DNA from: Myxococcaceae bacterium
Lineage (GTDB): Bacteria; Myxococcota; Myxococcia; Myxococcales; Myxococcaceae
Length of the DNA stretch: 64,000 nucleotides
NCBI GenBank assembly: GCA_035622755.1
Contig: DASPUU010000137.1
Location: 3,498 to 67,497, forward strand
Reading direction: 5' to 3'
Below are positions 15,291 to 48,571 of this stretch, in pieces (position 1 is the first letter of the stretch; each line of letters starts with the position of its first letter). A model generated the notes under the pieces. The model saw only the letters and a list, made by a program, of their open reading frames with translations, made no database searches and was not told the DNA's origin. Position numbers and translations under genes: made by a program.

Positions 15291-15347
15291 CCCCCCTGGA
15301 GCACGGCTTGCGGCCGGCGCTCGCGGCGCGCGATCATCGTCGGCGTC

Positions 15348-17531
15348 TTGCCGCCTCACCGCGCCGTGCTCGTCCTCGCTCTCGCCCTGGCCACGGGCGC
15401 GGCCGCCGCACCGGCCGGAACCCGCGAGCGCGACCACGAGATGCTCCGCGAGGTGGTGGCGGAGATCTCCGCCCGCGCCCCGCTGGGCAGCGCCCGCCTC
15501 GGCATCCAGGTGGTCAGCCTGGCCGACGGCTCGGTCCTCTTCGCCCGGAATGCCGACGACCTGCTCAACCCGGCCTCGAACGTGAAGCTGGTCACCGCGG
15601 CGGCGGCCCTGGCCCGGCTCGGGCCGGACTATCGCTTCGAGACCGAGTTCTTCCTCGAGGGCGCCGGGTCCGAACGACCCCGCCTCCTCGTCCGCGGCAA
15701 GGGCGACCCCTCGATGACCACCGAGCGGCTCTACCAGGTGGTGAGCGAGCTCAAGCACCTCGGGCTGCACGACGTCTCGGACATCGTCCTCGACGACACC
15801 TTCTTCGACACCGAGCGGCTGGCGCCGGGCTTCGAGCAGGAGACCACCGACCGGCCCTACACCGCGCCCACCGGGGCGCTCAGCCTCAACCTGAACGCCG
15901 TCGGCATCCACGTCCGGTCGGTGGGCGCCGGCCTCCGGCCGGTGGTCGAGGTCGACCCGCCGAGCGACTTCTTCACCGTGCTCAACGCGGCGGTGGGGAC
16001 CTCGAGCCGGGCCCGGCGCTCGTCCGTCTCCTCGCTGCCCGACGGCGAGCGGCAGCGCATCGTGGTCCGGGGCACCGTCCCGGCGTCGGGGGAGTTCGCC
16101 GTCTGGAAGCGCGTCGACCAGCCGCCGTTCTACTTCGGCCAGACGCTGCGGATGCTCCTCGAGCAGCGGGGGATCCACGTGCGGGGCAAGGTCAGGCTGG
16201 GCGCCGTCCCGGACCACCTCCGGCCGTTCTACGTCGCTCAGAGCGAGACGCTGGACATGGTCCTCAAGCGAATGAACAAGAGCTCGAGCAACTTCGTCGC
16301 CGAGCAGTTGCTCAAGACGATGGGCGCCGAGGCCAGGGGCGTACCGGGGACCACCGCCAAGGGCGTCCAGGCCACCGAGGAGTTCCTCGAGCGGGAGGTG
16401 GGCATCCGGCGCGGCTCCTACGTCTTCAAGAACGGGTCCGGCATCAACGACACCAACCGGTTCAGCGCCGCCCAGCTCACCCGCCTGGTGAAGACCATGG
16501 CCGAGCGGTTCGCCCTCGCCCCGGAGTACCTCTCCAGCGTTCCCATCGGAGGCAAGGACGGCACGCTCAAGTGGCGCTTCGAGGGAACCGAGGCCGCCGG
16601 CCGGCTCCGGGCCAAGACCGGGACCCTGGAGAACGTCTCCGCCCTGAGCGGCGTGGTCCAGAGCGCGGGCGGGGAGGCCTTCGCCTTCAGCATCCTGGTG
16701 AACGACTTCCCCGGGCGCACCGCTCCGGTCGTCCAGGCCATCGATGCCCTGGGAGCGGCGCTGGCCGGGGCCGGCGCGCCGGGCGGTCCGGGCGCGGCCC
16801 TGGCCTCGCTCCGTCCGCCCGTCTCCGAGCCGTCGCCGGCGGAGGAGGCCCGCGCCCGCCTGGCCACCTATCTCCAGCTCGGACGCGCCGCGGATCGCCG
16901 CAACGTCGCCTTCCTGCGCACCGCCTGGCGCAACGAGAAGGACCCGGCCGTGCGGGCGGTGGTGGCCGATGCCATCTACCAGTCCAATCCCTCCGACTAC
17001 CTCGGCGCCCGGGCGCTGCTCGACAGCTTCAGCGCCTCGGACGACGTCTACCTCCGGCTGCGCCAGCTGGCCCGGAGCTCGGGCATCGACACCCCGTGCG
17101 TCTCGTCGCTGGTGACGCTGGCCGCCGAGGGCAACGCCGAGGCCCTGGGCCGCCTCCTCGAGCTCCCCCGGGCCGCCGCCTCCGACGAGCCGGCGCGGAG
17201 CGACCTGGCGGTGGCCCTGTCCGAGGTCTCGCGCACCGCGCCGGAGGAGCTGGTGCAGGCGCTCCAGGCCGCGGCGCCGGCCGACCGCGAGGCGGCGCTT
17301 CCCCTGCTCGCCCGCGGCATCGAGCGCGAGCGTGACGCGGACCATCCCTTCTGGCCGGCGGTGCGCCGGTTGATGGCCGGCGCCGAGCCGTCCCGCGCGG
17401 CCTTCGCCCGCGAGCTGGAGACGGCGCTGAGCCAGCGCATCGCCCAGGACCGCGCCCCGGCCGCGCCCCCCTCCCTGGGCCCGCGGCCGCCGCCGCCTGC
17501 CGAGGTCTCGCCCGAGCGGCCAGGCGGCTGA
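15348..17531 (+). CDS. dacB: D-alanyl-D-alanine carboxypeptidase/endopeptidase (PBP4, peptidase S13) with ~250-aa helical C-terminal extension
   Basis: TTG start; signal peptide; SxxK (PASNVKL), SSN, KTG (AKTGTL) motifs. Residues after ~480 are an extra alpha-helical, HEAT-like region ([16 protein letters not shown]...). Confidence 0.8.
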
Positions 17532-32268: not shown

Positions 32269-32784
32269 CTAGATGCGGGGCTTGGCCACCACCACCGCGC
32301 CGACCATGGCCACCAGCAGCAGGAGGGACACGGCCTCGAAGGGGAAGATCCACCGGGTGTAGAGCAGCCCTCCCACCGCCTCCAGCGTGCCGAACCGCGC
32401 GGCCTCGGCCGGCTTGCCGACGACCCCGGCGGCCTGCCAGCGCGACAGGGCGGCCACCAGCACCACCAGGAGCCCGGCGGCGGACAGGGCGCCGACCACG
32501 CGGTGGAGGCTGACCCGCCGCACCGGCTCGCCCAGGTCGGTGAGCGAGAGGAGCATGATCACGAAGAGGAAGAGCACCATGATCGCCCCGGCGTAGACCA
32601 GGACTTGGAGCACGGCGATGGTGTGGGCCAGGAGCAGCACGTAGAGGCCGGCGAGGAAGAAGAAGGTCGCCACCAGCGACATGGCCGAGTTGATCGGGTT
32701 CCGCGCGGCGATGACCAGCGCGGCCGAGACCAGGGTGGCCGCGGCGAGCAGGTAGAAGACCACCTCCTGGGCGCTGAAGCTCAC
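32269..32784 (-). CDS. nuoJ: NADH-quinone oxidoreductase subunit J
   Basis: GTG 32784 (GTGA overlap with nuoF stop). 171 aa, ND6-type (RNPINSAMSLV..FF.LAGLYVLL.A...A.LQVLVYAGAIMVLFLFVIM). Confidence 0.85.
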   Translation of the reverse strand: MSFSAQEVVFYLLAAATLVSAALVIAARNPINSAMSLVATFFFLAGLYVLLLAHTIAVLQVLVYAGAIMVLFLFVIMLLSLTDLGEPVRRVSLHRVVGALSAAGLLVVLVAALSRWQAAGVVGKPAEAARFGTLEAVGGLLYTRWIFPFEAVSLLLLVAMVGAVVVAKPRI

Positions 32785-34115
32785 GCGGGCAGCGCTCCGT
32801 AGTGGCCCCAGGGCCGGTCGCCGAAGGGGCACCGGTGCTGGAAGACGTGCGCCTCGAACTCGCCCCGGAAGCGCGACACGAAGCTGTGGATGGGCAGGGC
32901 GATGGAATCCCCCAGCGCGCAGATGGTGTTCCCCAGCCCGATGGGAGGGAAGGGGGCGATGCTGTGCGCCACGTGGAGGAGGATGTCCAGGTCTTCCGGC
33001 TCCCCGCGGCCCTCCTCGATCTTGCGCAGGATCCGCGCCGCCCACGGCCCCCCCTCGCGGCAGGGGGTGCACTGGCCGCAGGATTCCTCGGCGTAGAAGC
33101 GCGTCACCCGCCACAGGCAGCGGACCATGCAGGTGGCGTCGTCCATGACGATGACCCCGCCGGACCCGGCCATGTTGTCCACCTTCTTCAGCGCCTCGAA
33201 CTCCAGCTCCACGTCGAGCTCGTGGGCGGCCAGGACCGGAGCGCTCGAGCCGCCGGGGATGACCGCCTTCACCCGCCGCCCGGCCGGCATGCCCTGGCCG
33301 TAGCGCTCGTCCTCGATCAGCTGGCGCACGGTGGTGCGCATGGAGATCTCGAACACGCCCGGCCGCCGGACCGAACCGGAGAGACAGATGAGCTTCGTCC
33401 CCCCCGACTTCTCGGTGCCGAGCCGGGCGTACCACTCCCCGCCGTGCTCGATGATGTGGGGGACGGAGGAGATGGTCTCCACGTTGTTGACCACCGTCGG
33501 GCATCCGAAGAGCCCGACCACCGCCGGGAAGGGAGGCTTGAGCCGAGGCCAGCCCTTCTTCCCCTCCAGGGACTCGAGCATCCCCGTCTCCTCGCCGCAG
33601 ATGTAGGCCCCGGCGCCGCGGACGACGTAGACGTCGAGGGCGAAGGGGCGCCCGAGGACGCTCTTGCCCAGGATGCCCGCCCGGTAGGCCTCCTCGACGG
33701 CCCGCTCCAGCCGCTCCACCTGGAACTTGAACTCGCCCCGCGCGTAGACGTAGGCCGTGTGCGCGCCCAGCGCCCAGCAGGTGATGGCGATGCCCTCGAT
33801 GAGCATGTGCGGGTCATGCTCGAGGATGTACCGGTCCTTGAACGTCCCCGGCTCCGACTCGTCGGCGTTCACCGCCAGGTACCTCGGCCTGGGGTTGTCC
33901 TTGGGGACGAAGCTCCACTTCATCCCGGTGGGGAACCCGGCGCCCCCCCGCCCCCGGAGGTTGCTCCGCTTGACCTCCTCGGTGACCTGGTCCGGGGCCA
34001 TCCCCAGCGCCTTCTCCAGCGACTTGTAGCCGCCCGAGTCCTGGTAGGCGCGCAGCGTCCAGGACTCGGGCTTGCCCCAGTTCCGGGTGATGACCTTTTC
34101 GGCGGCCGGAAGCAT
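32781..34115 (-). CDS. nuoF: NADH-quinone oxidoreductase subunit F
   Basis: GRGGAGFPTGMKW (FMN/NADH site), 4Fe-4S motif ESCGQCTPCREG. 444 aa from ATG 34115 inside track ORF 32781..34745. Confidence 0.92.
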   Translation of the reverse strand: MLPAAEKVITRNWGKPESWTLRAYQDSGGYKSLEKALGMAPDQVTEEVKRSNLRGRGGAGFPTGMKWSFVPKDNPRPRYLAVNADESEPGTFKDRYILEHDPHMLIEGIAITCWALGAHTAYVYARGEFKFQVERLERAVEEAYRAGILGKSVLGRPFALDVYVVRGAGAYICGEETGMLESLEGKKGWPRLKPPFPAVVGLFGCPTVVNNVETISSVPHIIEHGGEWYARLGTEKSGGTKLICLSGSVRRPGVFEISMRTTVRQLIEDERYGQGMPAGRRVKAVIPGGSSAPVLAAHELDVELEFEALKKVDNMAGSGGVIVMDDATCMVRCLWRVTRFYAEESCGQCTPCREGGPWAARILRKIEEGRGEPEDLDILLHVAHSIAPFPPIGLGNTICALGDSIALPIHSFVSRFRGEFEAHVFQHRCPFGDRPWGHYGALPA

Positions 34116-34144: not shown

Positions 34145-34633
34145 TCAGGACAGCTGGTCGAAGATGGCATCCACCCGGCCGCGGGTGAGGTTCTCGTGGT
34201 GGACCTCGTCCACCTGGAGGCAGGGAGCCGTGCCGCACGAGGCCAGGCACTCCGTCTCGCGGAGCGTCCACCGCTCGTTGGACGTTCCGGATTTCAGGCC
34301 CAGGCGGTTCTCCAGGTGGACGAGCAGCTCCTCCGCCCCCCGCAGCGAGCAGGAGAGGTTGGTGCACACGTCCACCACGTGCTTGCCCGGCTTGGTGGTG
34401 TGGAACATCACGTAGAAGGTGGCCACCTCGTAGGCCCGCTCCGGGGACACCCCCAGGGCGCGGGCGACGAGCACCATCCCGTCCGGGGGGAGCCAGCCCT
34501 TGATGTCCTGGAGGAGGCGCAGCGCGGGCAGCATCGCCGCGCCTTTGCGGTCCGGCGGGTAGTGCGCGAGAATCTCCGATAGCTTCGCGTCGAAGACGCG
34601 CTGCTCCTCGGCCGAGAAGAAGGGCGACCCCAT
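34145..34633 (-). CDS. nuoE: NADH-quinone oxidoreductase subunit E
   Basis: 2Fe-2S ligand pattern (VCTNLSCSLRG ... CLASCGTAPC). 162 aa from ATG 34633 inside track ORF 34145..34948. Confidence 0.9.
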   Translation of the reverse strand: MGSPFFSAEEQRVFDAKLSEILAHYPPDRKGAAMLPALRLLQDIKGWLPPDGMVLVARALGVSPERAYEVATFYVMFHTTKPGKHVVDVCTNLSCSLRGAEELLVHLENRLGLKSGTSNERWTLRETECLASCGTAPCLQVDEVHHENLTRGRVDAIFDQLS

Positions 34634-34676: not shown

Positions 34677-35426
34677 GTGGACGTGAGCATGGAGGACGAC
34701 GAGAAGCGCGGTGACCCGCGTCTGCCATTCGTCCTGCGCGTCCATTTTCGCGATCGCGCCGAGGCGCTGAGCGCCACCGAGAATCTCTCGCGCGGCGGGC
34801 TGTTCGTGCAGACCCGGGCGGCGCTCGGCCCCGGCGACCCGGTGGCGCTGGCCGTCTCCTTCCCCGGGCTGCTCGAGCCCGTTCCCCTCCAGGGCGAGGT
34901 GGTCTGGGTGCGCGTTCCCCGCCCGGACGCGGTGGGGGGCTTGGGCATCCGGGTGGCGGATCCGGCGGCCCGCGCGCGCCTCCAGGCGGTGCTCGCCGAG
35001 GGCGCTCCCCCGCGGCCGGCCGCGTCACCGGCCGGCTACCGGGTGCTCCTGGTGGAGGACAATCCCCATGTCCTGGAGATGGTCAGCTATGTCCTGAAGA
35101 AGCTGGCCAACCAGGAACTCGGGGGCCGGGTGCCCCTGGAGGTCCACTTCGCCCAGGACGGACACGGGGCGCTGGTCCAGCTGGAGCGCCTCCGGTTCGA
35201 CCTGGTGGTCACCGACCTCTACATGCCTGTGCTGGATGGATTCCAGCTTCTGCAGCGGATGAAATCCGATCCGCGCACCCGGGCCATTCCCGTGGTAGCC
35301 ATCAGCGGGGGTGGGACGGAGGCGCAGGTGCGCGCCACCGACTTCGGGGTGGACGTGTACCTGGGCAAGCCGCTGAAGTTCGTCCAGGTCCTGGAGACGG
35401 TGAAGCAGTTGCTGCGAATCAGCTAA
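34677..35426 (+). CDS. PilZ domain - response-regulator receiver protein
   Basis: PilZ motifs RGDPR (RxxxR) and NLSRGG (D/NxSxxG). Receiver with EDN acidic pocket, phospho-acceptor D in VVTDLYMP and conserved K (LGKPL). GTG 34677 or ATG 34689. Confidence 0.8.
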   Translation: MDVSMEDDEKRGDPRLPFVLRVHFRDRAEALSATENLSRGGLFVQTRAALGPGDPVALAVSFPGLLEPVPLQGEVVWVRVPRPDAVGGLGIRVADPAARARLQAVLAEGAPPRPAASPAGYRVLLVEDNPHVLEMVSYVLKKLANQELGGRVPLEVHFAQDGHGALVQLERLRFDLVVTDLYMPVLDGFQLLQRMKSDPRTRAIPVVAISGGGTEAQVRATDFGVDVYLGKPLKFVQVLETVKQLLRIS

Positions 35427-35451
35427 CATCCGACGAGTTTTGAGGAACGCC

Positions 35452-36822
35452 ATGAACACGCAGAGGGCGCCCATCACCCGCGACACGGTGAGCGGAGAGG
35501 CGTTGTTCATTCTCAAGAATCTCCGGGAGAACAGCCGGCTCGGGCGCTCGAACAAGCTGGCCGACGTCAAGACGGCCCTCGAGCCCGCCGTCTCCCTGGA
35601 GTTCGACGCGTACTTCTTCTTCCTCCGGAAGTTCCACTACATCGCCATGGATCGCGAGGCCCAGCTGCGGCTGACCGACACCGGCGAGCGGGTGGTGGAG
35701 GGCAACGAGCTGGACCGCTTCAGCGGTGAGGTGGGGGAGTTCTTTTCCGAGCAGCTGGGCTCGTCCGATGAGCCGATCGGGCCCTCGTACCCCGTCGTCG
35801 AGGTGGAGCCGGTGGTCTCCATCTCGGAGCACGTCACCTTGGAGAGCTCAGTGTCCCAGCCCCCTCCCTCCTCGAGCACCCCCGCTCCGCGCCCCGCTCC
35901 GCGTCGGGCCTCCACCGCGGTCGACGGGCTCCAGGCCGTGGACGGGCGCCCCTCCGCCGCCCCGAGCAAGGCGGGCGACGGCGACCTGCGCTACACCAAG
36001 TTCGACGCCATCGGCTCCGGCCCGCTGGGGACGGTCTACAAGGGCCGGCAGAACAGCCTGGGGACGGAGGTGTCGATCAAGGAGCTGAAGGACATCTTCG
36101 GCTACTTCTCCTTCCTGCAGCGCTCGGACGTGGTGAAGCGGCTCAAGACCGAGCTCTGCGCCCAGGCCCAGGTCCGCCACCCCGGGGTGGTGACCATCCT
36201 CGACCAGAACACCGACGTCGGCCGCCCCTACGTGGTGATGGAGCTCCTGCGCGGCAACCTGCGCGAGCGCCTGGACCAGTCGGCCGGCAAGGGCCTCCCG
36301 GTGGCCCAGGCGATGCGGACCTTCCTCCAGCTCGCCTACGGGCTCCGCGCCGCGCATGCCCAGGGCCTCACCCACCAGAACATCAAGCCGGAGAACGTCC
36401 TCTTTGACGGCTACGGGAACGCCAAGCTCGGCGACTTCGGCCTGAGCCGGGTCATCGAGATCGAGTCCGGCAAGGGCATGCCCCAGGTCTACGTGGGGAC
36501 GGGCTCGCTCAGCTACCTGGCCCCGGAGCTGATCGTGAAGGCCAAGGATGCCGGGGCGGCGGCGGACGTGTACGGGCTGGGCATCCTCCTCTACGAGATG
36601 CTCACCGGCGGCATCCCCGGCCGGCGCTCGCCGCTCCCCTCCGAGGTGCGCAGCGAGGCGCCGAGCAAGCTCGACCCCATCTTCGACAAGATGACCCACG
36701 ACCGGCGAGAGGCCCGCTACCCGGACTTCGACGCCATGCTCGAGGAGTTCTACGGCGCCTTCAGCGACGGGGAGTACCTCGGGCGCGGCGACCTGGTCCT
36801 CTCCTCCGAGCCGCTGCGCTGA
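35452..36822 (+). CDS. Ser/Thr-kinase-fold protein, predicted pseudokinase (HRD replaced by HQN), with unknown N-terminal domain
   Basis: GAGGAA 5 nt before ATG 35452. Gly loop IGSGPLGTVYKG, VSIK Lys, DFG, APE present. Catalytic loop reads LTHQNIKPENV (codons 36373-36381). Confidence 0.75.
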   Translation: MNTQRAPITRDTVSGEALFILKNLRENSRLGRSNKLADVKTALEPAVSLEFDAYFFFLRKFHYIAMDREAQLRLTDTGERVVEGNELDRFSGEVGEFFSEQLGSSDEPIGPSYPVVEVEPVVSISEHVTLESSVSQPPPSSSTPAPRPAPRRASTAVDGLQAVDGRPSAAPSKAGDGDLRYTKFDAIGSGPLGTVYKGRQNSLGTEVSIKELKDIFGYFSFLQRSDVVKRLKTELCAQAQVRHPGVVTILDQNTDVGRPYVVMELLRGNLRERLDQSAGKGLPVAQAMRTFLQLAYGLRAAHAQGLTHQNIKPENVLFDGYGNAKLGDFGLSRVIEIESGKGMPQVYVGTGSLSYLAPELIVKAKDAGAAADVYGLGILLYEMLTGGIPGRRSPLPSEVRSEAPSKLDPIFDKMTHDRREARYPDFDAMLEEFYGAFSDGEYLGRGDLVLSSEPLR

Positions 36823-37364
36823 CCGACCCGGAGGAGGCCGTCCGCTCCGGGCTGGCCCGCTTTCACCTCGGGGAGTTCCACGGGGCGCACGAGGCCTGGG
36901 AGGACGGATGGCGAGCCGCCTCCGGTCCGGAGCGTGACCTTCTCCAGTCGCTGGTCCAGCTCGCCGCCGCTTTCCACCAGTGGAGCCGGCCCAAGCCTGG
37001 CGGCGCGGCGCGGCTCCTCGCCCGGGCCCGGGTCCGGCTCGCCACCCTGCCGAGCGCGCTCCTCGGCATCGACGTCGCCGAGCTCGAGCTGCGGCTCGCC
37101 GGCTGGGGAGAGGCGGCGGCGCGCGGCGACCCGGTTCCCGCCTCGCCGCGCGTGCCGGACGGGACCTCGGGGCCGCTGCCCGATTCGGCCCGGCGCGCGC
37201 GCTGCCCGTACTGCGGCGAGTGGGTGGAGGTGCAGGTCGAGCCCGTGGGCGCAGCCGAGGAGCGCTACGTCGAGGACTGCCCGGTGTGCTGCCGGCCCTG
37301 GACGGTGCGGGTGAGCCGCGACGGCGCCCGGGTCGGCGTGGCGCTCGGCCGGGAGGACGACTGA
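36819..37364 (+). CDS. DUF309-like domain fused in frame to a CPXCG zinc-ribbon-like module; start codon uncertain
   Basis: Frame reads ...GLARFHLGEFHGAHEAWEDGWR...LLQSLVQLAAAFHQWSRPKPGGAARLLARA (DUF309 pattern), then RCPYCGEWVEV...EDCPVCCRPW (CPXCG). No ATG/GTG/TTG in frame before GTG 37152. CTG 36819 overlaps the upstream TGA. Confidence 0.45.
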   Translation: MTDPEEAVRSGLARFHLGEFHGAHEAWEDGWRAASGPERDLLQSLVQLAAAFHQWSRPKPGGAARLLARARVRLATLPSALLGIDVAELELRLAGWGEAAARGDPVPASPRVPDGTSGPLPDSARRARCPYCGEWVEVQVEPVGAAEERYVEDCPVCCRPWTVRVSRDGARVGVALGREDD

Positions 37365-37573
37365 GCGCCCCCCCGGGGGCCGGTCGCACGGGAGAGCCCA
37401 CCCCGGAGCCGCTCGCCGGAGGCGGCGGGCCCTGCGAGCTCACGACGGATCACGGGAGATTTCGGCCAGTTGAGCCGGGAGGAACCGGCCCAGGGCCGTC
37501 GGCCGGGGCAGGAGGGCGCGCCGGCACCGGCCCGGCAATGAACGGCCCCGAAAGGCGTAGTGCACAGTCAGAC

Positions 37574-38074
37574 ATGCTGCGCACCGCTGCCCTTTCCGTT
37601 CTCCTTTTGGCCGCTCTCTCCCCGGGCGCCGCCCGGGCCCTCGACGTCAGCGCCGACTGCACCATCGACGCCAAGCCGGGCGACGTGGTGGCCAAGGGCC
37701 GGGACGTGGTGGTCGACGCCAACAAGCGCGTCAACGACGTGGTGGCCGTCGACGGCAACGTCACCCTCCGCAAGGGCGTCCACGCCAAGAGCGTCATCGC
37801 GGTGAACGGCTCGGTCACCCTCGAGGCCGGGGCCAAGGTGACCGGCAGCGCCATCTCGTTCGGCGGGAAGGTCAAGGTCGCCCCCGACGCCAAGGTCGAG
37901 GGGAGCCGGCTCGAGCTCGGCGACGGCATCCACATCAAGAACGAGGACGGCAAGGACGTCTCGCTCGACTTCTCCATCGGCGGCGAAGGTCTGGGTCAGC
38001 TGCTGGCCGGGAAGATCAGCGGCGCGGCACGCAACTGCCGCATCGTGGAGCAGCCGGACGGCGGCACGAGGTAG
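37574..38074 (+). CDS. secreted hypothetical protein with beta-solenoid-like V/G/D-rich repeats
   Basis: Signal peptide MLRTAALSVLLLAALSPGAARA (ATG 37538 is an alternative start). Repetitive ..V.A.G.V.V.. segments (DVVAVDGNVTLRKGVHAKSVIAVNGSVTLEAGAKVTGSAISFGGKVKVAPDAKVEGS). Confidence 0.55.
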   Translation: MLRTAALSVLLLAALSPGAARALDVSADCTIDAKPGDVVAKGRDVVVDANKRVNDVVAVDGNVTLRKGVHAKSVIAVNGSVTLEAGAKVTGSAISFGGKVKVAPDAKVEGSRLELGDGIHIKNEDGKDVSLDFSIGGEGLGQLLAGKISGAARNCRIVEQPDGGTR

Positions 38075-38084
38075 CCGCGTCGGC

Positions 38085-39821
38085 TCAGCGCCCGGGCGAG
38101 ACCCCGGGAGGCTGGTAGGGCGGGCTGACGACCAGCGCGGGCTCGAGCTCCAGGGCGACCCGCATCTCCGCCCGCGCCTTCTCCGCCCACTCCTCCTGAT
38201 GGCTCGGGCCGCCTTGCTCGATGAACATCGCCTGGCGCGTGTAGGCGGTGGCCAGCCAGGCATGGGCCAGCGCATAGTTGGGATCGAGCGCCAGGGCCTT
38301 CTGAAACTCGGCGATCGCCTCGAGATTCGTCCCGGCATCGGCCCCCTGCTCCGACCTCGCGGCCGCCGCCCACTGCTCGGCCTGGGAAACCCCGCGCAGG
38401 TAGTGGTCGTAGGCGTCCGGGCTGGACGTCGAGCCGCGCTTCAGGCGGGTGCCGTCCGCGGTGGTCAGCTTGAGGGCCAGCGCGCTGGCCACCTTCGCCC
38501 CCACGTCGCGCTGGACATCGAGCACGTCCTTGGCTTCGAGGTCGTACACCTCGGCCCACAGGTGTCTCTCCGTCCGGGCGTCGATGAGCTCGGTGGCGAT
38601 CCGGATCCGGCTCCCGACGCGCCGGACGCTCCCGTCGAGGATGGTGGCCACCCCCAGCTCGGATGCGATCTGCCGGATGGGCTTCCCTGCTCCCCGGTAG
38701 ACCCCGGTGGAGGTGCGCGAGAGGACGCGGAGACCGGGCACCTTGGCCAGCTGGATGAGGATGTCCTCGGTGAGACCGGCGCTGAAGTAGTCGTCGGCCG
38801 GGGAGCCGCTGAGGTTGGTCAGCGGCAGGACGGCGATGCTCTGCGGGTCGACGAGCTCGAAGGCGCGGGCCGGTCGGGAGCGGTAGGCGACGATGGCGCC
38901 GCCGGCGGCGAGGGCGACCACCAGCCCGAGGACCAGGCCGGTGGCGAGCCGGCGGCCGCGGCGCTCCAGCGCCGGGACGAGCTCGAGCGGGTCCGCGGTC
39001 CGCTTCCGAAGGTCCGGCTCCAGCGCGCGCCGCAGCGGCGCCGCCCACCCCCGCGGGACATCCTCGAGCATGCCAGGGTCCGGAATCCGCCCGGTGACCA
39101 TCTCGTGCGCGACCAGGCCCAGGGCGTAGACGTCCGTCCGCGGGCTCACCTCCGCGCCGGCGCGCTGCTCGGGTGCCATGTACGCCGGGCTTCCGACCAC
39201 CGCACCCGCCTCGGTGCCAGGCCATCCCGTGTCACCGCCCTCGGTGCGGGCGGGGCGGGCGATGCCGAAGTCCGTGACCACCGCCCGGAGCCGGTCGCGC
39301 TCGTGGACGAGGATGACGTTGCCCGGTTTGAAATCCCGGTGGATCAGATCCTTGGTATGGATGGCGGCCAGTCCCCGGGCCATCTGGTCGAGCAGGGGCA
39401 GCGCCTCCCGGGGCGAGAGCGGCCCCTTCCGCAGCCGCTCGGCGAGCGTCTCGCCGTCGAGGAACTCCATGGTGATGAACGCCAGCGGCCTCCCGTCCGG
39501 GCCGGGGCCCTCGTGAAAATCGAAGAGCCGGCAGACGTGGGGATGGGTCACGGCGCGGGCGAGCTGAACCTCGCGCCGCAGGCGCTCCAGAAGCTCGGCC
39601 CCGGCGCCGGTCGAGGTGCGGATCGTCTTCAGGGCGACGGTGACGTGCAGCCGGAGGTCGCGCGCCTCGTAAACCTCCCCCATTCCCCCGCGGCCCACGA
39701 GCCGCGCGAGCTTGAACCGTCCGAGCAGGACGTCGCCCGGGCACTGGGGAGAGACGTCGGTGGGTGGCTCCCCCCTCACCGTCCCGGTGACAGGCTCGGT
39801 CTCCCGTGAATCGTCGGGCAT
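38085..39821 (-). CDS. transmembrane Ser/Thr protein kinase, paralog 1 (short TPR tail)
   Basis: Kinase motifs GRGGMGEVY, VALK, HRDFKPGN, DFG, APE. One TM helix. Periplasmic IAVLPL.NLSGSP.DDYF...DGSVRR.GSRIRI...LIDA..E..LWAE.YD module. Only one short TPR-like stretch. 578 aa. Confidence 0.85.
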   Translation of the reverse strand: MPDDSRETEPVTGTVRGEPPTDVSPQCPGDVLLGRFKLARLVGRGGMGEVYEARDLRLHVTVALKTIRTSTGAGAELLERLRREVQLARAVTHPHVCRLFDFHEGPGPDGRPLAFITMEFLDGETLAERLRKGPLSPREALPLLDQMARGLAAIHTKDLIHRDFKPGNVILVHERDRLRAVVTDFGIARPARTEGGDTGWPGTEAGAVVGSPAYMAPEQRAGAEVSPRTDVYALGLVAHEMVTGRIPDPGMLEDVPRGWAAPLRRALEPDLRKRTADPLELVPALERRGRRLATGLVLGLVVALAAGGAIVAYRSRPARAFELVDPQSIAVLPLTNLSGSPADDYFSAGLTEDILIQLAKVPGLRVLSRTSTGVYRGAGKPIRQIASELGVATILDGSVRRVGSRIRIATELIDARTERHLWAEVYDLEAKDVLDVQRDVGAKVASALALKLTTADGTRLKRGSTSSPDAYDHYLRGVSQAEQWAAAARSEQGADAGTNLEAIAEFQKALALDPNYALAHAWLATAYTRQAMFIEQGGPSHQEEWAEKARAEMRVALELEPALVVSPPYQPPGVSPGR

Positions 39822-39883
39822 GGGGCCCCGCGGACGCCGCGGAGCTTAGGCCTCCGCCGGTGCGCGAGCCAGGACCCCGGCCG

Positions 39884-42265
39884 TCAGCGGACCTCGGCCT
39901 TCCACTTCTCCCACCGCGGCCGGAGCTCGCCGACCAGGCGGAGGAACCCGGGGTCGGAGCGGAGCGGGTCGAGGAGCGGGTCGCGGGAGATGAGCAGGTA
40001 GCTCGGCATCCCTCCCTGCACCGTCTTCCGCAGCCAGTCCAGCGCCTGGTCGAGGTGGCCGAGCTGCGCCTCCACCGCGGCCAGCTCGTAGGTGTCGTGG
40101 TGGTAGGTCGAGGCCTGCTTCGGCCCGCCGGCAGCGGCGATCTCGTCGACCAGCGCCTGCGCCTCCGCCCGCCGCCCTCGCAGCGCGAGCACCATGGCGC
40201 GCGCGATGCGGTCGTCCACCGGCTGGGGCGCCGGGACCTCCGGGTCGAACACCCGCTCCACCGGGTCCACCTGGTCGAGCCGCACCAGCGCCTTCCAGGC
40301 CCGGCGCGTGGCCTTGGGCTCGGGGTTGAGGGCCCGCGTCCGGGCCACCGCATCCTGCCAGCGGCCGGCCATCTCGTAGCCGGTGGTGACCAGGACGCGG
40401 CCGGCATCGCTGAGCGGGTCGAGCTCGAGGCCGAGCTCCACCTCGCGGAGCCCTGCCTCCTCGATGCCCCGGTGCAGCCGGTACAGCCCGAGCAGGCTGT
40501 GGCCGAGGGCGGTCGGCTCCAGCTCCTGGGCCTGCTGCACCTCGGCCAGCGCGCGGTCCAGGTTCCACCCACCGAGATGGCTGAACTGGAGCACTCCCTC
40601 GGCCAGGTGCGGCAATCCCAGCGAGGACTCGAGCTCCAGGGCCCGGGCCGCCTCCCGGCGGGCGCGCTCGAAGAGCGAGGCGTCGCTGACCTCGTGGTCG
40701 GCGGCCAGGTGGGCCAGGCAGTAGGCCAGCCGCGCGTGGGCCAGGGCATAGCCGGGGTCGAGCTGGAGCGCCTGCTCCAGGTCCGCCTCGGCAGCGACCA
40801 GGTTCGCCCGCCTCCACCACTGGTCCGACTTCGAGACGCCGCGCAGGTAGTAGTCGTAGGCCTCCGGGTTGGAGGTCGAGCCGCGGCGGAGCCGGGCGTT
40901 GTCCGCCTGGGTGAGCTGGAGGGCGAGCGCGGAGGCGACCTTCGAGGCGACGTCGCTCTGGACGTCGAGCACCTCCCGGGCGTCGCGATCGTACGTCTCC
41001 GCCCAGAGGTCCTGGTCGGTCCTGGCGTCGATGAGGTGGACGCTGATGCGCACCCGCCCCCCGGCCCGGCGGACGCTGCCCTCGAGCACCGTCCCCACCC
41101 CGAGCTCGGCGGCCACCTCGTGCGGGGGGCGGGACGTGCCGCGATAGGCCGACGACGAGGTGCGGGAGATGACCCGCAGCCCCGGCACCTTGGAGAGCTG
41201 GGTGAGGATGTCCTCGGCCAGGCCCTCGCCGAAGTAGGCGTCGTCCGGCGAGCCGCCGAGATTGGCCAGGGGCAGCACGGCGATGGAGCGCTGGTCGGCC
41301 GCCCGCCGGGGGTGCGCTTCCCAGGGGCGGCCGAGCGCAACGACCACGGCGGCGCCGGCCAGGGCGACGACGGCCGCCGCCCCGAGGCGAGCTCTCCTTG
41401 CTCGCCGCCCGCTCAGCGCCTCGACGAGCTCGACCGGGCCCAGGTACCGGCGCGATGGATCCTCGGCGAGCGCCCGGCGCAGCGGGGCCCGCCAGCCTCG
41501 CGGCACGGCACCCGGGTCGCCCCCCTCCGGGAGCTGACCGGTCACCATCTCGCAGGCGACGAGGGCGAGGGCGAACTGGTCGGCGCGGGCGGTCACCGGG
41601 CCGCCGCTCCTCTGCTCCGGCGCCATGTAGGCCGGGCTCCCGAAGACCACCCCCTCCTCGCCCTCGGTCTCGCCCCCCGCGCCCCCGGCCCGGCGCGCGA
41701 TGCCGAAGTCGGTGACCACGGCGCGGAGCTCGCCCGCCTCCTGGTGGAGCATCACGTTTCCGGGCTTGAAGTCGTGGTGCACCACTCCCTCGGCGTGGAT
41801 GGCCGCCAGCCCCTCGGCGATCTGCTCGAGCAGGGCGATGGCCTCCGCCGGTGCGAGGGGCCCCGCCCGCCGGAGCCGCTCGCCCAGAGTCTCGCCGTCC
41901 AGGTACTCCATGGTGAGAAAGGCCAGCGGCCTGCCGTCCGGGCCGGGACCCTCCTCGAAATCGAAGATGCGGCAGACGGCCGGATGGGTCACCGTCCGCG
42001 CCAGCTGCACCTCCCGGCGGAGCCGCTCGAGCAGGTCCGCCCCGCCGGCGACCGAGGCGCGCACCGTCTTCAGCGCCACGGTCACGTCCAGCCGGAGATC
42101 GCGGGCCTCGTACACCTCGCCCATCCCGCCCCGGCCCACCAGTCGGATGAGCTTGAAGCGCTCGAGCAGAACGCTCCCCTCCCGGAGGGCGGCCCCCGGC
42201 GTCACCACCGTGGGCCGGGTAGGCGCCTCGAGGAGCGCCTCGGTTTCGCGCAGGTCCTCCGTCAT
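39884..42265 (-). CDS. transmembrane Ser/Thr protein kinase, paralog 2 (non-RD: HHD), with long TPR domain
   Basis: Same architecture as paralog 1 plus ~300-aa TPR region. Catalytic loop VVHHDFKPGN (41771-41779). 793 aa. Confidence 0.85.
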   Translation of the reverse strand: MTEDLRETEALLEAPTRPTVVTPGAALREGSVLLERFKLIRLVGRGGMGEVYEARDLRLDVTVALKTVRASVAGGADLLERLRREVQLARTVTHPAVCRIFDFEEGPGPDGRPLAFLTMEYLDGETLGERLRRAGPLAPAEAIALLEQIAEGLAAIHAEGVVHHDFKPGNVMLHQEAGELRAVVTDFGIARRAGGAGGETEGEEGVVFGSPAYMAPEQRSGGPVTARADQFALALVACEMVTGQLPEGGDPGAVPRGWRAPLRRALAEDPSRRYLGPVELVEALSGRRARRARLGAAAVVALAGAAVVVALGRPWEAHPRRAADQRSIAVLPLANLGGSPDDAYFGEGLAEDILTQLSKVPGLRVISRTSSSAYRGTSRPPHEVAAELGVGTVLEGSVRRAGGRVRISVHLIDARTDQDLWAETYDRDAREVLDVQSDVASKVASALALQLTQADNARLRRGSTSNPEAYDYYLRGVSKSDQWWRRANLVAAEADLEQALQLDPGYALAHARLAYCLAHLAADHEVSDASLFERARREAARALELESSLGLPHLAEGVLQFSHLGGWNLDRALAEVQQAQELEPTALGHSLLGLYRLHRGIEEAGLREVELGLELDPLSDAGRVLVTTGYEMAGRWQDAVARTRALNPEPKATRRAWKALVRLDQVDPVERVFDPEVPAPQPVDDRIARAMVLALRGRRAEAQALVDEIAAAGGPKQASTYHHDTYELAAVEAQLGHLDQALDWLRKTVQGGMPSYLLISRDPLLDPLRSDPGFLRLVGELRPRWEKWKAEVR

Positions 42266-42344
42266 GGGTCGCCCCGCGGGCCTCGCTGGGCGCCCCCGGG
42301 CGGCGGGAGCATAGGCGTGGGGCGCGGCGCAGGGCCACGCCGGC

Positions 42345-44726
42345 TCAGGGATGGTCCGCCTTCCACCTCTCCCAGCGGGGCCTGAGCTCGGTCATCAGCT
42401 GCGCGAAGCCCGGGTCGGAACGGATGGGATCGAGCAGCGGATCGCGCGAGAAGAGGAGGTAGTTCGGGAACCCCGACTCGGCGGCCTTCCGGAGCCAGCC
42501 GACGGCCTCCGTCGGGTGGCCGATGAGCGACTCGGTGCAGGCCAGCTCGTACATCGAGTGATGGGCCCATTCCCCGGGCTCGAGCGGGTAGCCGCCGGCA
42601 AAGAGCTTCGCCAGGAAGGCCGCCTCGTCCTTCTTGCCGGCCACGGCCAGGATCAGCGCCCGCGTGGTGTCGGGGGTCTCGGGGAAGACCTCGTCCGGGT
42701 CAGGCGTCTCGGCCAGCGCCACTGCCTCGTCCAGGCGCCCCACCCGGAGCATCGAGGGCAGCCCCCGCAAGCGGTCGCTCGGTCTCTCGGCGAGCTCCCG
42801 GCTCCGGCTCAGCGCCTCGTTGAAGCGAGCGGTCCACTCGTACGCCAGCACCGTCACCAGCCGGACCAGCGTTCCCCGCGGGTTGAGCTTGAGAGCCAGC
42901 TCCGCCTCGCGCACCGCCGGCTCGAGCCCGACGTGGCCCATCACCGAGGCGGCCCAGATGTGTGCCGAGTCCGGCTCGAGCGCCCGGGCGCGCGCGAACT
43001 CCTTCATCGCACCGTCGAAGTCCCAGCCGCTGTACCGGCTGAAGAGGAGCTGGCCCAGAGCGACGTGCGGCAGGGCCAGCCCCGGTTCGAGCTCCAGGGC
43101 CCGGTTCACCGAGCTCCGGGCCCGGTCGATCCACTGGGGATCCTCCGCGTCGTTGTACAGGCCGTAGCGCAGGTAGGCATCCCCCAGCTCGGCATGTGCC
43201 AGGGCGTAGCCGGGGTCGAGCGCGACGGCGTGCTCGAAGTCGGACATCGCCGCCCGCAGCTCCTTGCCCGACCCGTTCCCGGCATGGGCGACGCCCTTGA
43301 GATAGAAATCGTAGGCCTCGGGGTTGGAGGTGGTGCCGCGACGGAGGCGTGCGCCGTCCGCCTCGGTGAGCCGGAGGGCCAGCGCCGCGGCCACCTTCGA
43401 CGCCACGTCCGTCTGCACGTCGAGCACGTCCCGCGGGTCCCGGTCGTAGGTCTCCGCCCACAGCTGGCGCTCGGTTCCGGCATCGATGAGCTGCGCGGTG
43501 ATGCGGATGCGGCCCCCCGCCCGCCGGATGCTCCCCTCGAGGAGCGTGCCCACCCCGAGCTCCTGGGCGATCTCCCGGAGCGGTCGGGTGGTTCCCTTGT
43601 AGGGCCGGGTCGAGCCGCGGGCGATGACGTGCAGCGTGCGCATCTTGGTGAGCTGGGTGTTGATGTCCTCGGTCAGCCCGTCCCCGAAGTAGTCGCTGTC
43701 CGGGCCGCCACCGAGGTTGGCCAGGGGAAGCACGGCGATGGCCAGGCGGTCCGCCCGCGGCGTGCGGCCACGCAAGGCCATGGTGACTGCACCGGCCGCG
43801 ACCAGCGCCACGGCCAGGGTGACGCCCGCCGCCAGCCGGCGGCGGCGGCGCTTGCCGCCCTCGAGGGTGGCCACCAGCGCCCGCGGGTCGGCGGGTCGCC
43901 TCTCCGGATCCGCGTCGAGGGCCCGGCGCAGCGCCGGGGCCCAGGCCCGCGGGACGTGGTCGAGGACCCCGCTCTCCGAGGGAAGCCGGCCGCTCACCAT
44001 CTCGCAGGCGACCAGGGCCAGCGCGTGGATGTCGGTCCGGGCGGTCACCTCGCTCCCCTGCCGCTGCTCGGGCGACATGTAGGCCGGACTCCCGATGACC
44101 GCCCCCTCCTCGGTGCCCACCCAGCCGGTGTGGTTGCCGCTGCCCCGGGCGGCGCGCGCGATGCCGAAGTCGGTCACCACCGCCCGGAGCTCGCCCCCCT
44201 CGTGCACGAGCATCACGTTTCCGGGCTTGAAGTCGCGGTGGATGAGCCCCCGGGCGTGGATGGCGGCCAGGCCCTCGGCCATCTGCTCCAGCAGCGGGAT
44301 GGCCTCCCGGGGAGGGAGCGGGGCGGAGGCGAGTCGCTCGGCGAGCGTCTCGCCGTCGAGGTACTCCATGGTGACGAAGGCGACCGGCTTCTCGTCCGGC
44401 CCGGAGCCCTCGTGGAAATCGAAGACGCGGCAGACGTTCGGATGGGTCACGACCCGGGCGAGCTGCACCTCGCGCCGGAGGCGTTCCAGCAGCTCGGGGG
44501 CGGCGGTGGACGAGGTCCGCACCGTCTTCAGGGCGACGGTGGCGTGCAGCCGGAGGTCGCGCGCCTCGTACACCTCGCCCATCCCGCCCTGGCCGACGAG
44601 GCGGAGGAGCTTGAAGCGCTCGAGGAGGACCTCACCCTCGCGCAGCGTCGAGGAGGACGGCGCGGGTGTTCCCGACGACTGGACGGTGTCGCCCAGGGAC
44701 TCGGTCTCGCGCACGTTCTCCGGCAT
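42345..44726 (-). CDS. transmembrane Ser/Thr protein kinase, paralog 3, with long TPR domain
   Basis: HRDFKPGN, DFG, APE; TM; IAVLPLANLGGGPDSDYF... module; TPR region. C-terminus ...LLDPIRSDPGFAQLMTELRPRWERWKADHP. 793 aa. Confidence 0.85.
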   Translation of the reverse strand: MPENVRETESLGDTVQSSGTPAPSSSTLREGEVLLERFKLLRLVGQGGMGEVYEARDLRLHATVALKTVRTSSTAAPELLERLRREVQLARVVTHPNVCRVFDFHEGSGPDEKPVAFVTMEYLDGETLAERLASAPLPPREAIPLLEQMAEGLAAIHARGLIHRDFKPGNVMLVHEGGELRAVVTDFGIARAARGSGNHTGWVGTEEGAVIGSPAYMSPEQRQGSEVTARTDIHALALVACEMVSGRLPSESGVLDHVPRAWAPALRRALDADPERRPADPRALVATLEGGKRRRRRLAAGVTLAVALVAAGAVTMALRGRTPRADRLAIAVLPLANLGGGPDSDYFGDGLTEDINTQLTKMRTLHVIARGSTRPYKGTTRPLREIAQELGVGTLLEGSIRRAGGRIRITAQLIDAGTERQLWAETYDRDPRDVLDVQTDVASKVAAALALRLTEADGARLRRGTTSNPEAYDFYLKGVAHAGNGSGKELRAAMSDFEHAVALDPGYALAHAELGDAYLRYGLYNDAEDPQWIDRARSSVNRALELEPGLALPHVALGQLLFSRYSGWDFDGAMKEFARARALEPDSAHIWAASVMGHVGLEPAVREAELALKLNPRGTLVRLVTVLAYEWTARFNEALSRSRELAERPSDRLRGLPSMLRVGRLDEAVALAETPDPDEVFPETPDTTRALILAVAGKKDEAAFLAKLFAGGYPLEPGEWAHHSMYELACTESLIGHPTEAVGWLRKAAESGFPNYLLFSRDPLLDPIRSDPGFAQLMTELRPRWERWKADHP

Positions 44727-44816
44727 GTTGACCCCTGGGCCGCCGCCCCCCGGGCATCCGGCAGCATAGGCGCGGGGCCCCGTGCCGGGCCACGCGGGAA
44801 CCGGCCCACTCGCCGC

Positions 44817-45348
44817 TCAGCGGTAGTCGGCCGTCCACCGCTCCCAGCGCGGCCAGGAGCTGGACGAAGCCCGGGTCGGAGCGGACCGGGTCGAGCAGTT
44901 CCGCCATCTGCCCGAGCAGGGTGAGCGCTTCCTCGGGCGCCAGGCGTCCCGAGTGGAGTCGCTCGGCCAGGGTCTCGCCGTCGAGGTACTCCATGGTCAC
45001 GAAGGCGAGGGGCTTGCCCTCGGGCCCAGTCCCCTCGTGGAAGTCGAAGACCCGGCAGACGTTGGGGTGTGTCACCGCCCGTGCCAGCTGCACCTCCCGC
45101 CGGAGCCGCTCCAGGAGCTCGGGGAGCGCGGTGGAGGAGGCCCGGACGGTCTTCAGGGCAACCGTGGCGTGGAGCCGCACATCCCGGGCCTCGTACACCT
45201 CGCCCATCCCGCCCCGGCCGACGAGCCGGACGAGCTTGAAGCGCTCGAGGAGGAGGTCCCCCTCGCGGAGGGCAGCGTGCGAGTCCGGCGACCCGGAACG
45301 CGGGAGGGTGTCGTCGAGCGCCTCGGTCTGCCGGTCGCGGTCGGTCAT
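44817..45348 (-). pseudogene. internally deleted, frameshifted remnant of a fourth kinase paralog
   Basis: The N-terminal ~148 kinase residues (to ...LLGQMAE) are joined directly to the family C-terminal tail (LLDPVRSDPGFVQLL). The ancestral ending PRWERWTADYR-stop (TGA 44817-44819) is now in another frame. Track ORF 44632..45348 runs out of frame into paralog 3. Confidence 0.75.
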
Positions 45349-45374
45349 CCCGCCCCCCGACCGCCGATGGTAGC

Positions 45375-45959
45375 TCAGCCCGCCTTCTTGCTCATCGCCA
45401 GCGGGACGCGGAACACCTCCAGCACCTGGGCCACGTCCACCGGCTTGGCGAGGCAGGCCACCGCCCCGGCCTTGAGCGACTGCTCGACCATCTCCGGCGT
45501 GTGGCGGCCGGTCATGGTGATGAGCCGCACCGCCTCAAGGTTCTTGCGCGCCTTGATGCGCCGGCACACCTCGAAGCCGTCCACCTCCGGCATGTTCAGG
45601 TCGATGAGCAGGCCATGCGGCTTGAGCTCGGTGACGAGCAGGAGCGCCTCCACCCCGGAGGTGGTGGTGGTCAGCTCCACCTGGCTCCCGTGGGCCTTGA
45701 AGGCGCGCTTCAGGGCGTCGAGCACCGGCTTCTCATCGTCCACGGCCAGGAGCCGGACCGCCGAGCTGCCCAGCTCCTCGGGAACGGGCATCTGGTGGGC
45801 GATGAGAAAGGAGCGGAGGTCGCCCCCGCGCACGCGGCGGTGACCACCCGGGGTCCGGAAGGCGATGAGGATTCCCCGGTCGATCCACTTGCTGACCGTG
45901 GAGGGGTCTACCTGGAGCAACCGGCTGATGTCATGGGTCGTGTAGAGCGTGTCCGTCAT
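45375..45959 (-). CDS. excisionase/MerR-type HTH - response-regulator receiver protein
   Basis: N-terminal HTH (YTTHDISRLLQVDPSTVSKWIDRGIL..FRTPGGHRRV). Receiver with DDE pocket and acceptor D in LLIDLNMP, K in LAKP. 194 aa. Lies 26 nt upstream of the kinase remnant. Confidence 0.8.
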   Translation of the reverse strand: MTDTLYTTHDISRLLQVDPSTVSKWIDRGILIAFRTPGGHRRVRGGDLRSFLIAHQMPVPEELGSSAVRLLAVDDEKPVLDALKRAFKAHGSQVELTTTTSGVEALLLVTELKPHGLLIDLNMPEVDGFEVCRRIKARKNLEAVRLITMTGRHTPEMVEQSLKAGAVACLAKPVDVAQVLEVFRVPLAMSKKAG

Positions 45960-46076
45960 GGCCTCGACCCGTCCTGAAACCTGGACTGCGCGGGCATCCT
46001 GCCCCCAAGCCCTGGGGCAGGGAAGGCGAATTTCTGCTTTTCCCTGGCCTGGGCGTGGTCGGCCCGGACCCGGGGC

Positions 46077-48571
<2,495 letters not shown>

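Follow-up and report, generated by a model that had tools for sequence, protein, structure and literature searches.

PixA (MXAN_1087), a PilZ-receiver protein of Myxococcus xanthus, carries its phosphorylated aspartate at position 180 and has no known partner kinase; from intergenic distance, its gene has been argued to lie outside any operon (Kuzmich et al. 2021, PMC8316039). The same species has MXAN_1093, an orphan DNA-binding response regulator whose D128N allele strongly lowers sporulation (PMC12773805; MXAN_1093 is also mentioned in PMC3509222). Myxobacteria typically possess large paralogous families of TPR-type membrane Ser/Thr kinases, and the bacterial Ser/Thr kinase (STK) atlas describes seven pseudokinase families, all without the VAIK Lys (bioRxiv 10.1101/2025.01.12.632604). 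Here we describe a locus that combines a PilZ-receiver gene, a pseudokinase gene, a helix-turn-helix (HTH)-receiver gene and a tandem array of receptor Ser/Thr kinase genes. It comprises nine genes between nuoE-nuoF and kdsA-pyrG, at positions 34677-45959 of the window, the 64,000-nt stretch of DNA analysed here, which lies within a 76-kb contig of a metagenome-assembled genome (3.9 Mb, 335 contigs) of an uncultured Myxococcaceae bacterium from peat.

Reading frames were picked by third-position G+C (G+C ~70%) and annotated with Pfam. An earlier interpretation made from the letters alone, referred to below as the sequence-only reading, had listed the same nine genes. Its coordinates proved correct, as did its domain assignments; the beta-solenoid label that it gave to the secreted protein is considered below.

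The conserved block and the kinase array

We consider it about 80% probable that this stretch is a two-layer mosaic, in which a young kinase array confined to one sub-lineage has been inserted into an old five-gene Myxococcaceae block. The comparison covered 80 loci around pseudokinase homologues, one genome per species (GTDB representatives), onto which the window proteins were mapped, together with metagenomic relatives of the window (L115/L121 and L118) obtained by searching a large protein collection. The PilZ-receiver, pseudokinase, DUF309-CPXCG, secreted protein and HTH-receiver genes are co-conserved across several genera, and the array kinases are missing at the locus in all 80, including six other species of the genus. 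Conservation of all nine genes together, to which the sequence-only reading had looked, thus holds for these five and fails for the kinases. The insertion point is equally clear. In kinase-free relatives the stop codons of the secreted-protein and HTH-receiver genes are ~20-35 nt apart, and the 7.3-kb array of the window sits exactly there, the two arms of the locus converging at 38074/38085 as had been read before.

The first layer would be a vertically inherited neighbourhood, made up of a probable operon of a PixA-type PilZ-receiver, a pseudokinase and DUF309-CPXCG, the secreted-protein gene and, convergent with the latter and downstream of pyrG-kdsA, a gene for an MXAN_1093-type HTH-receiver. 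The six other species of the genus share the order nuoF, PilZ-receiver, pseudokinase, DUF309-CPXCG, 2-4 kb of other genes, secreted protein, HTH-receiver, kdsA and pyrG. Neighbouring genera (e.g. L030, L037) have the five genes contiguous and without an insert, and in distant Myxococcaceae (Archangium, Cystobacter, Myxococcus-like) just nuoF, the PilZ-receiver gene and the pseudokinase gene are still adjacent. Adjacency of the PilZ-receiver gene to nuoE/nuoF was found in most of the 80 related loci. All four same-genus species checked have a GH44 glycoside hydrolase gene between DUF309-CPXCG and the secreted-protein gene (L013, 10065-13679; L014, 11052-12890; L015, 12141-13997; L016, 12119-14227), and L013 additionally has a phosphodiesterase/sulfatase-like gene there. 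This interval is a second variable slot of the block and is empty in the window.

The second layer would consist of tandem single-pass receptor Ser/Thr kinases, each with a cytoplasmic kinase domain, one transmembrane segment, and a periplasmic TolB_N/FlgO-like module and TPRs. Its origin would lie within a single sub-lineage of the genus, in the short spacer that separates the convergent genes. Two kinases occupy the same spot in L115/L121, where pyrG is 97% and the pseudokinase 93% identical to the window, and L118 has at least two; no reference species is as close to the window as the L115 and L118 organisms. In a maximum-likelihood tree, K3 groups with its orthologue L115_KB, the second L115 kinase (78%), the K1 remnant with the first L115 kinase, L115_KA, and with L118_KB (81% to L115_KA, N-lobe), K2 with the first L118 kinase, L118_KA (72%), and K4 with a short subfamily. 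In L118, the spacer at the equivalent place retains a still shorter vestige of a kinase 3' end. This vestige and the deletion remnant K1 indicate that the array grows and shrinks by unequal recombination, which would account for the two copies of the nearest relative and for the three, with the remnant, in the window.

The clustering is due to tandem duplication and not to a gathering of independent genes, since five of the 40 Pkinase matches in the genome fall at this locus with a repeat period of ~2.45 kb. There is no other tandem cluster in the genome, and the DNA copies are 73-85% identical. Among orthologues, the ratio of nonsynonymous to synonymous substitution rates (dN/dS) is 0.13-0.37 in the folded domains of K2 and K3, both of which are therefore under purifying selection. 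Between paralogues, identity is 66-69% in the kinase domain and falls to 42-50% in the TPR and C-terminal parts, a pattern that points to diversification on the sensor side, with the divergence greatest in the periplasmic TPR parts. The kinases may be viewed as independent periplasmic sensors that occupy a permissive, rather than a functional, position.

An assembly of 335 contigs with ~2.45-kb repeats in the region invites the suspicion that metagenome assembly or binning created the arrangement, through a chimeric join or mis-collapsed repeats. However, many peat metagenomes contain the stretch, and the junctions recur, gap-free and at >=99% identity, in independent Logan contigs of other peat runs. 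These contigs span 35390-37512 (pseudokinase/DUF309), 37537-41488 (secreted protein and K4, into K3), 42107-44065 (K3/K2) and 45196-46080 (K1 remnant/HTH-receiver junction). The arrangement is therefore real, and the kinase copies, at the DNA identities given above, are too diverged to collapse. We give an artefact practically no credence.

Several observations weigh against the mosaic. No RNA runs containing the stretch were found, and the operon structure is read from gene spacing. The order of K1-type and K2-type kinases differs between the window and L118, and the history of the array is to that extent tentative. In the window and in L115 alike, 25-26 nt separate the HTH-receiver stop from the start of the first kinase gene, a spacing that would allow read-through co-transcription and some coupling. 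Finally, the G+C of the array is 0.73-0.76, against 0.67-0.70 in the housekeeping flanks, which could hint at a foreign origin. This excess of several points, with the lack of the kinases in the six other species of the genus, is what a horizontally acquired genomic island, carried in by a mobile element, might leave behind. Yet the nine genes include no integrase or transposase, no tRNA gene lies nearby, and no direct or inverted repeats bound the array; the conserved DUF309 and secreted-protein genes are equally high in G+C. Close homologues that carry a taxonomic label all come from Myxococcaceae assemblies, and the array members each have an orthologue in a near relative. Acquisition as a mobile island is thus very improbable beside local amplification within the mosaic.

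The sequence-only reading had gone further and suggested a single cross-wired circuit made up of all nine genes, with the orphan receivers or the pseudokinase as substrates or docking partners of the membrane Ser/Thr kinases. Its observation of two receivers with no histidine kinase among the nine genes was borne out, the conserved residues of both receivers being intact, and cases are known from other bacteria in which Ser/Thr kinases phosphorylate response-regulator-type transcription factors. The close same-strand kinase gene behind the HTH-receiver in the window and L115 speaks for the same idea. Nevertheless, the kinases are missing from the locus in 80 of 80 reference loci, where the receivers and the pseudokinase are conserved, and members of the same kinase family adjoin unrelated genes elsewhere, including greA/CBS, Macro/bPH and MMPL/hopanoid genes and a variable region with an IS481 transposase; same-genus genomes carry family members on other contigs. 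Wiring between the kinases and the receivers or pseudokinase therefore has no comparative support. Moreover, the copy right behind the HTH-receiver gene in the window is a dead remnant, and PixA and MXAN_1093 function in M. xanthus, with the site in the Myxococcus-like locus L082 free of any kinase of this kind. We regard the circuit as unlikely. The part of the proposal that stood is a link among the PilZ-receiver, the pseudokinase and DUF309-CPXCG, which form a tight same-strand unit across genera.

Under the two-layer reading, the 'signalling island' is an appearance produced by local tandem amplification beside an old conserved block. This is a caution for the reading of myxobacterial genomes, which are rich in kinases and orphan response regulators. 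The array itself offers a clean, small example of how a receptor kinase family grows, diverges in its sensor parts and decays, with a deletion junction and copy-number differences recorded between close relatives.

The PilZ-receiver, the pseudokinase and the DUF309-CPXCG frame

The PilZ-receiver of the window is identified, from gene position and conserved residues, as the orthologue of PixA, and the HTH-receiver, on comparable grounds, as that of MXAN_1093. The PilZ-receiver gene is nuoF-adjacent in 78 loci, and its phospho-acceptor is Asp at residue 180 counting from GTG 34677, although the true start is likely ATG 34689, which gives 245 aa. The syntenic gene of L082 (9123-9932) has Asp180 when counted from its sole upstream Met. 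L082 is tied to M. xanthus by the published MXAN_1093 primers (PMC12773805), whose matches there lie 1.1 kb apart (14290-15388), one with 3 mismatches and the other with 1, and bracket its HTH-receiver gene; the encoded protein is 80% identical to that of the window and has Asp at residue 128. The record of L082 is titled 'Comamonas sp. KCTC 72670', but the locus is of Myxococcus type and the organism label looks wrong. According to Pfam, the PilZ domain of the window protein covers residues 9-106 and the receiver 123-242. The translation has both RxxxR (RGDPR) and NxSxxG (NLSRGG), in agreement with the intact cyclic di-GMP (c-di-GMP) motifs read earlier, and the receiver residues are intact around VVTD(180)LYMP.

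In 78 of 84 loci the pseudokinase gene comes next after the PilZ-receiver gene and shares its orientation; two of the six exceptions are cut off by contig ends. The gap has a median of ~30 nt and is mostly below 60 nt; it is 13 nt in the window. A functional link within this conserved part of the locus (PilZ-receiver, pseudokinase and DUF309-CPXCG) is well supported by the gene arrangement, and the three products may work together. From gene order, the M. xanthus counterpart of the pseudokinase is probably MXAN_1088. The pairing with pixA is absent from the main-text discussion of the PixA paper (PMC8316039).

In all 76 pseudokinase orthologues, H[HQ]N replaces HRD, and the G-loop, beta3 Lys, alphaC Glu, DFG and APE are all retained. 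Human HER3/ErbB3 is a pseudokinase in which the HRD Asp alone is replaced by Asn, and kinases with Asn in place of this Asp can retain weak activity. The retained nucleotide-binding motifs suggest that the protein serves as a scaffold, acts allosterically or is a kinase of very low activity. AlphaFold (AF2) models comprise an N-terminal domain at residues 9-105 (predicted local distance difference test score, pLDDT, ~95), a disordered Pro-rich linker at 108-181 and a kinase fold. The N-terminal domain (window 35440-35760) has no Pfam match. When it was modelled alone, the top Foldseek matches were all winged-helix regulators (DtxR/IdeR, MarR), and the full pseudokinase model returned kinases only. 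Because the E-values of the winged-helix matches are weak (0.02-0.3), we describe the modelled fold just as winged-helix-like and make no claim of DNA binding. The helix that occupies the 'recognition' position has the sequence EFDAYFFFLRKF, which is more hydrophobic than is usual in winged helices that bind DNA.

The partner of PixA is an open question in M. xanthus (PMC8316039), for which a conserved, tightly spaced pseudokinase is a concrete candidate. We tentatively propose that the pseudokinase might be the missing partner of this orphan c-di-GMP-binding regulator, possibly with DUF309-CPXCG, and might act as a scaffold or allosteric switch and not as a phosphodonor; at present we would hold this to be a possibility and sooner doubt it than assume it. 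If it were true, a PixA-pseudokinase module would couple c-di-GMP and the receiver state to the control of cell polarity or reversal without a histidine kinase. Within the locus, the conserved PixA-pseudokinase-DUF309-CPXCG module is the part worth follow-up.

The DUF309-CPXCG frame of the window has no ATG, GTG or TTG start. The one codon that could initiate it is CTG 36819, which forms a 'CTGA' overlap with the stop of the pseudokinase gene. Compared with L115, 29 nt are missing (window 36790-36860), so that the spacer and the GTG start have been lost; in relatives the frame opens with ATG or GTG, between a few and a few dozen nt past the pseudokinase stop, and one of them has a GTGA overlap. 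The junction is identical and gap-free in an independent contig from run X2. The frame is otherwise intact, and of seven strain differences within it five are synonymous and two conservative. This resemblance to purifying selection weakly suggests that the frame is still translated. A -1 frameshift fusion of the pseudokinase and DUF309 is not favoured, there being no slippery heptamer before the stop. The gene offers a modest test of non-canonical or coupled initiation.

Features of the locus and its flanks

The features of the locus and of the flanking housekeeping genes are collected in Table 1.

Table 1. Genes of the locus and its flanks, with window coordinates, strand and the basis of assignment
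Feature	Coordinates	Strand	Assignment and remarks
nuoF	32781-34115	-	Pfam Complex1_51K, E = 6e-48; left flank
nuoE	34145-34633	-	2Fe-2S_thioredx, E = 1e-42; divergent from the PilZ-receiver gene
PilZ-receiver response regulator	34677-35426	+	Pfam PilZ PF07238, E = 3e-10; Response_reg PF00072, E = 4e-17
Pseudokinase	35440-36822	+	Pfam Pkinase, E = 2e-36; catalytic loop HQN, not HRD
DUF309 + CPXCG zinc-ribbon frame	36819-37364	+	Pfam, E = 3e-17 and 4e-15
Small secreted protein	37574-38074 (alternative start 37538)	+	Signal peptide read from sequence
K4, 578 aa	38085-39821	-	Pfam Pkinase + TPR_11; receptor Ser/Thr kinase, short subfamily
K3, 793 aa	39884-42265	-	Pfam Pkinase; non-RD loop HHD
K2, 793 aa	42345-44726	-	Pfam Pkinase + TPR_11
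K1 remnant, 238 codons	44632-45348	-	Kinase N-lobe (147 aa), from translation
HTH_17 + Response_reg regulator	45375-45959	-	Pfam; downstream of pyrG-kdsA, same strand
kdsA	46077-46895	-	DAHP_synth_1, E = 1e-62; right flank
pyrG	46892-48514 (or to 48553)	-	CTP_synth_N, E = 4e-124; right flank

K2, K3 and K4 match Pkinase (PF00069) at E = 3e-37 to 3e-36. All three have the G-loop, beta3 Lys, catalytic Asp, DFG and APE, with the loop HRDFKPGN in K2 and K4 and HHDFKPGN in K3; TDFGIAR is also present. They thus carry the motif set of active Hanks-type Ser/Thr kinases, and the predicted activity has indirect support from the low dN/dS between orthologues given above. A single hydrophobic run of 19-21 residues lies past the kinase domain, starting at residue 292-298 (292 in K4). 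The putative periplasmic module matches FlgO (E = 0.02) and TolB_N (E = 0.08) in K2 at residues 325-470, both below cut-off. K3 and K4 have no match to either, and precomputed annotations assign PF04052 or PF17680 to some homologues. The TPR_11 matches of K2 and K4 exceed the cut-off; Pfam finds no TPR directly in K3, which nevertheless aligns with K2 over the full length. Many homologues of the array kinases are annotated 'TolB-like protein' by JGI.

The sequence-only reading had described four tandem kinases, one of them decayed. Tandem copies and a decayed member were recovered, the latter being K1, an internal-deletion remnant. Its N-lobe runs straight into the final ~20 codons of a full-length copy, after which a small indel shifts the frame, and its repeat unit is 625 nt, compared with ~2450 nt for full copies. 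The true C-terminal peptide (WERWTADYR, then stop) is in another frame, and the open frame runs into K2. By its place in the tree, K4 is a natural short form and not a truncated or decayed copy, since it groups with a 575-580-aa subfamily found elsewhere. It clusters with P0029 (99%), P0046, P0053 and P0072, with lengths of 448-578 aa. Among homologues at other loci, K2-type kinases are split in L117 (10001-12393) and L123 (10001-12393; Macro/bPH_2 ... Peripla_BP_2) into 615+200 aa and 491+306 aa, and these are probably frameshifted copies.

A conserved GCCTATGCT block (GCCTAAGCT before K4) lies ~45 nt upstream of the K2, K3 and K4 starts, at 44745-44798, 42290-42343 and 39840-39870, and also upstream of L115_KB and L118_KA. 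As judged by eye, its spacing fits neither the sigma-54 nor the sigma-70 promoter consensus. A scan for promoters and terminators gave nothing above shuffled sequences, both terminator-like matches falling inside genes.

Orthologues of the secreted protein are 64-82% identical within the genus and ~49% identical in neighbouring genera, and their genes are always convergent with the HTH-receiver gene. Sequence searches gave no significant Pfam or PDB match and no relative of solved structure; an Ice_binding match below cut-off (E = 0.009) is the sole support for the beta-solenoid-like fold put forward in the sequence-only reading, which stays a putative one. The HTH-receiver is 71-98% identical wherever the locus was recovered. 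DigR was rejected as its identity, the domain of DigR being described as HTH_Xre, as opposed to HTH_17 in the window protein. Contigs of runs X2, X3 and X5 show a 1-nt length polymorphism at window position 45353, within the 26 nt that separate the K1 remnant start from the HTH-receiver stop. In the left flank and in L115 (18356-22397), nuoE and nuoF are accompanied by Oxidored_q3 (nuoJ), Oxidored_q2 (nuoK) and a nuoL-type antiporter subunit; the nuo cluster is partial in both, without nuoA-D and nuoG-I.

Comparison with described systems

The array kinases resemble 'Myxo1'-type STKs in architecture, with an N-terminal Hanks-type kinase, one transmembrane segment and extracytoplasmic TPRs (bioRxiv 10.1101/2025.01.12.632604). 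They differ from that type in standing head to tail as three intact copies and a remnant, one copy being non-RD (HHD) and one a short 575-580-aa form.

Like HER3/ErbB3, the pseudokinase has Asn in place of the catalytic-base Asp; in the window's protein this exchange is fixed across the orthologue group and the nucleotide-binding motifs are kept. Unlike the seven pseudokinase families of the STK atlas, it keeps the VAIK Lys, the alphaC Glu and the DFG Asp. The N-terminal winged-helix-like domain predicted from its model and the genetic pairing with a PilZ-receiver set it apart from the known pseudokinases with which it was compared.

The HTH-receiver shares with MXAN_1093 an N-terminal HTH_17 (MerR/excisionase-type) domain followed by a receiver, a place downstream of pyrG-kdsA and a phospho-acceptor Asp equivalent to Asp128. 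It differs in its surroundings, since same-strand receptor kinase genes come next in the window and its nearest relatives, whereas in M. xanthus the adjacent gene number, MXAN_1092, belongs to an Hsp20.

In the same way, the PilZ-receiver agrees with PixA in its N-terminal PilZ domain with both c-di-GMP motifs (binding is predicted here), in its C-terminal receiver with all phosphorylation residues, in its place beside nuoE/F in Myxococcus-like genomes and in being an orphan without a neighbouring histidine kinase. As to differences, the window protein is only 57% identical to the Myxococcus-like orthologue, and the pseudokinase gene follows at 13 nt in the window, compared with ~65 nt in L082.

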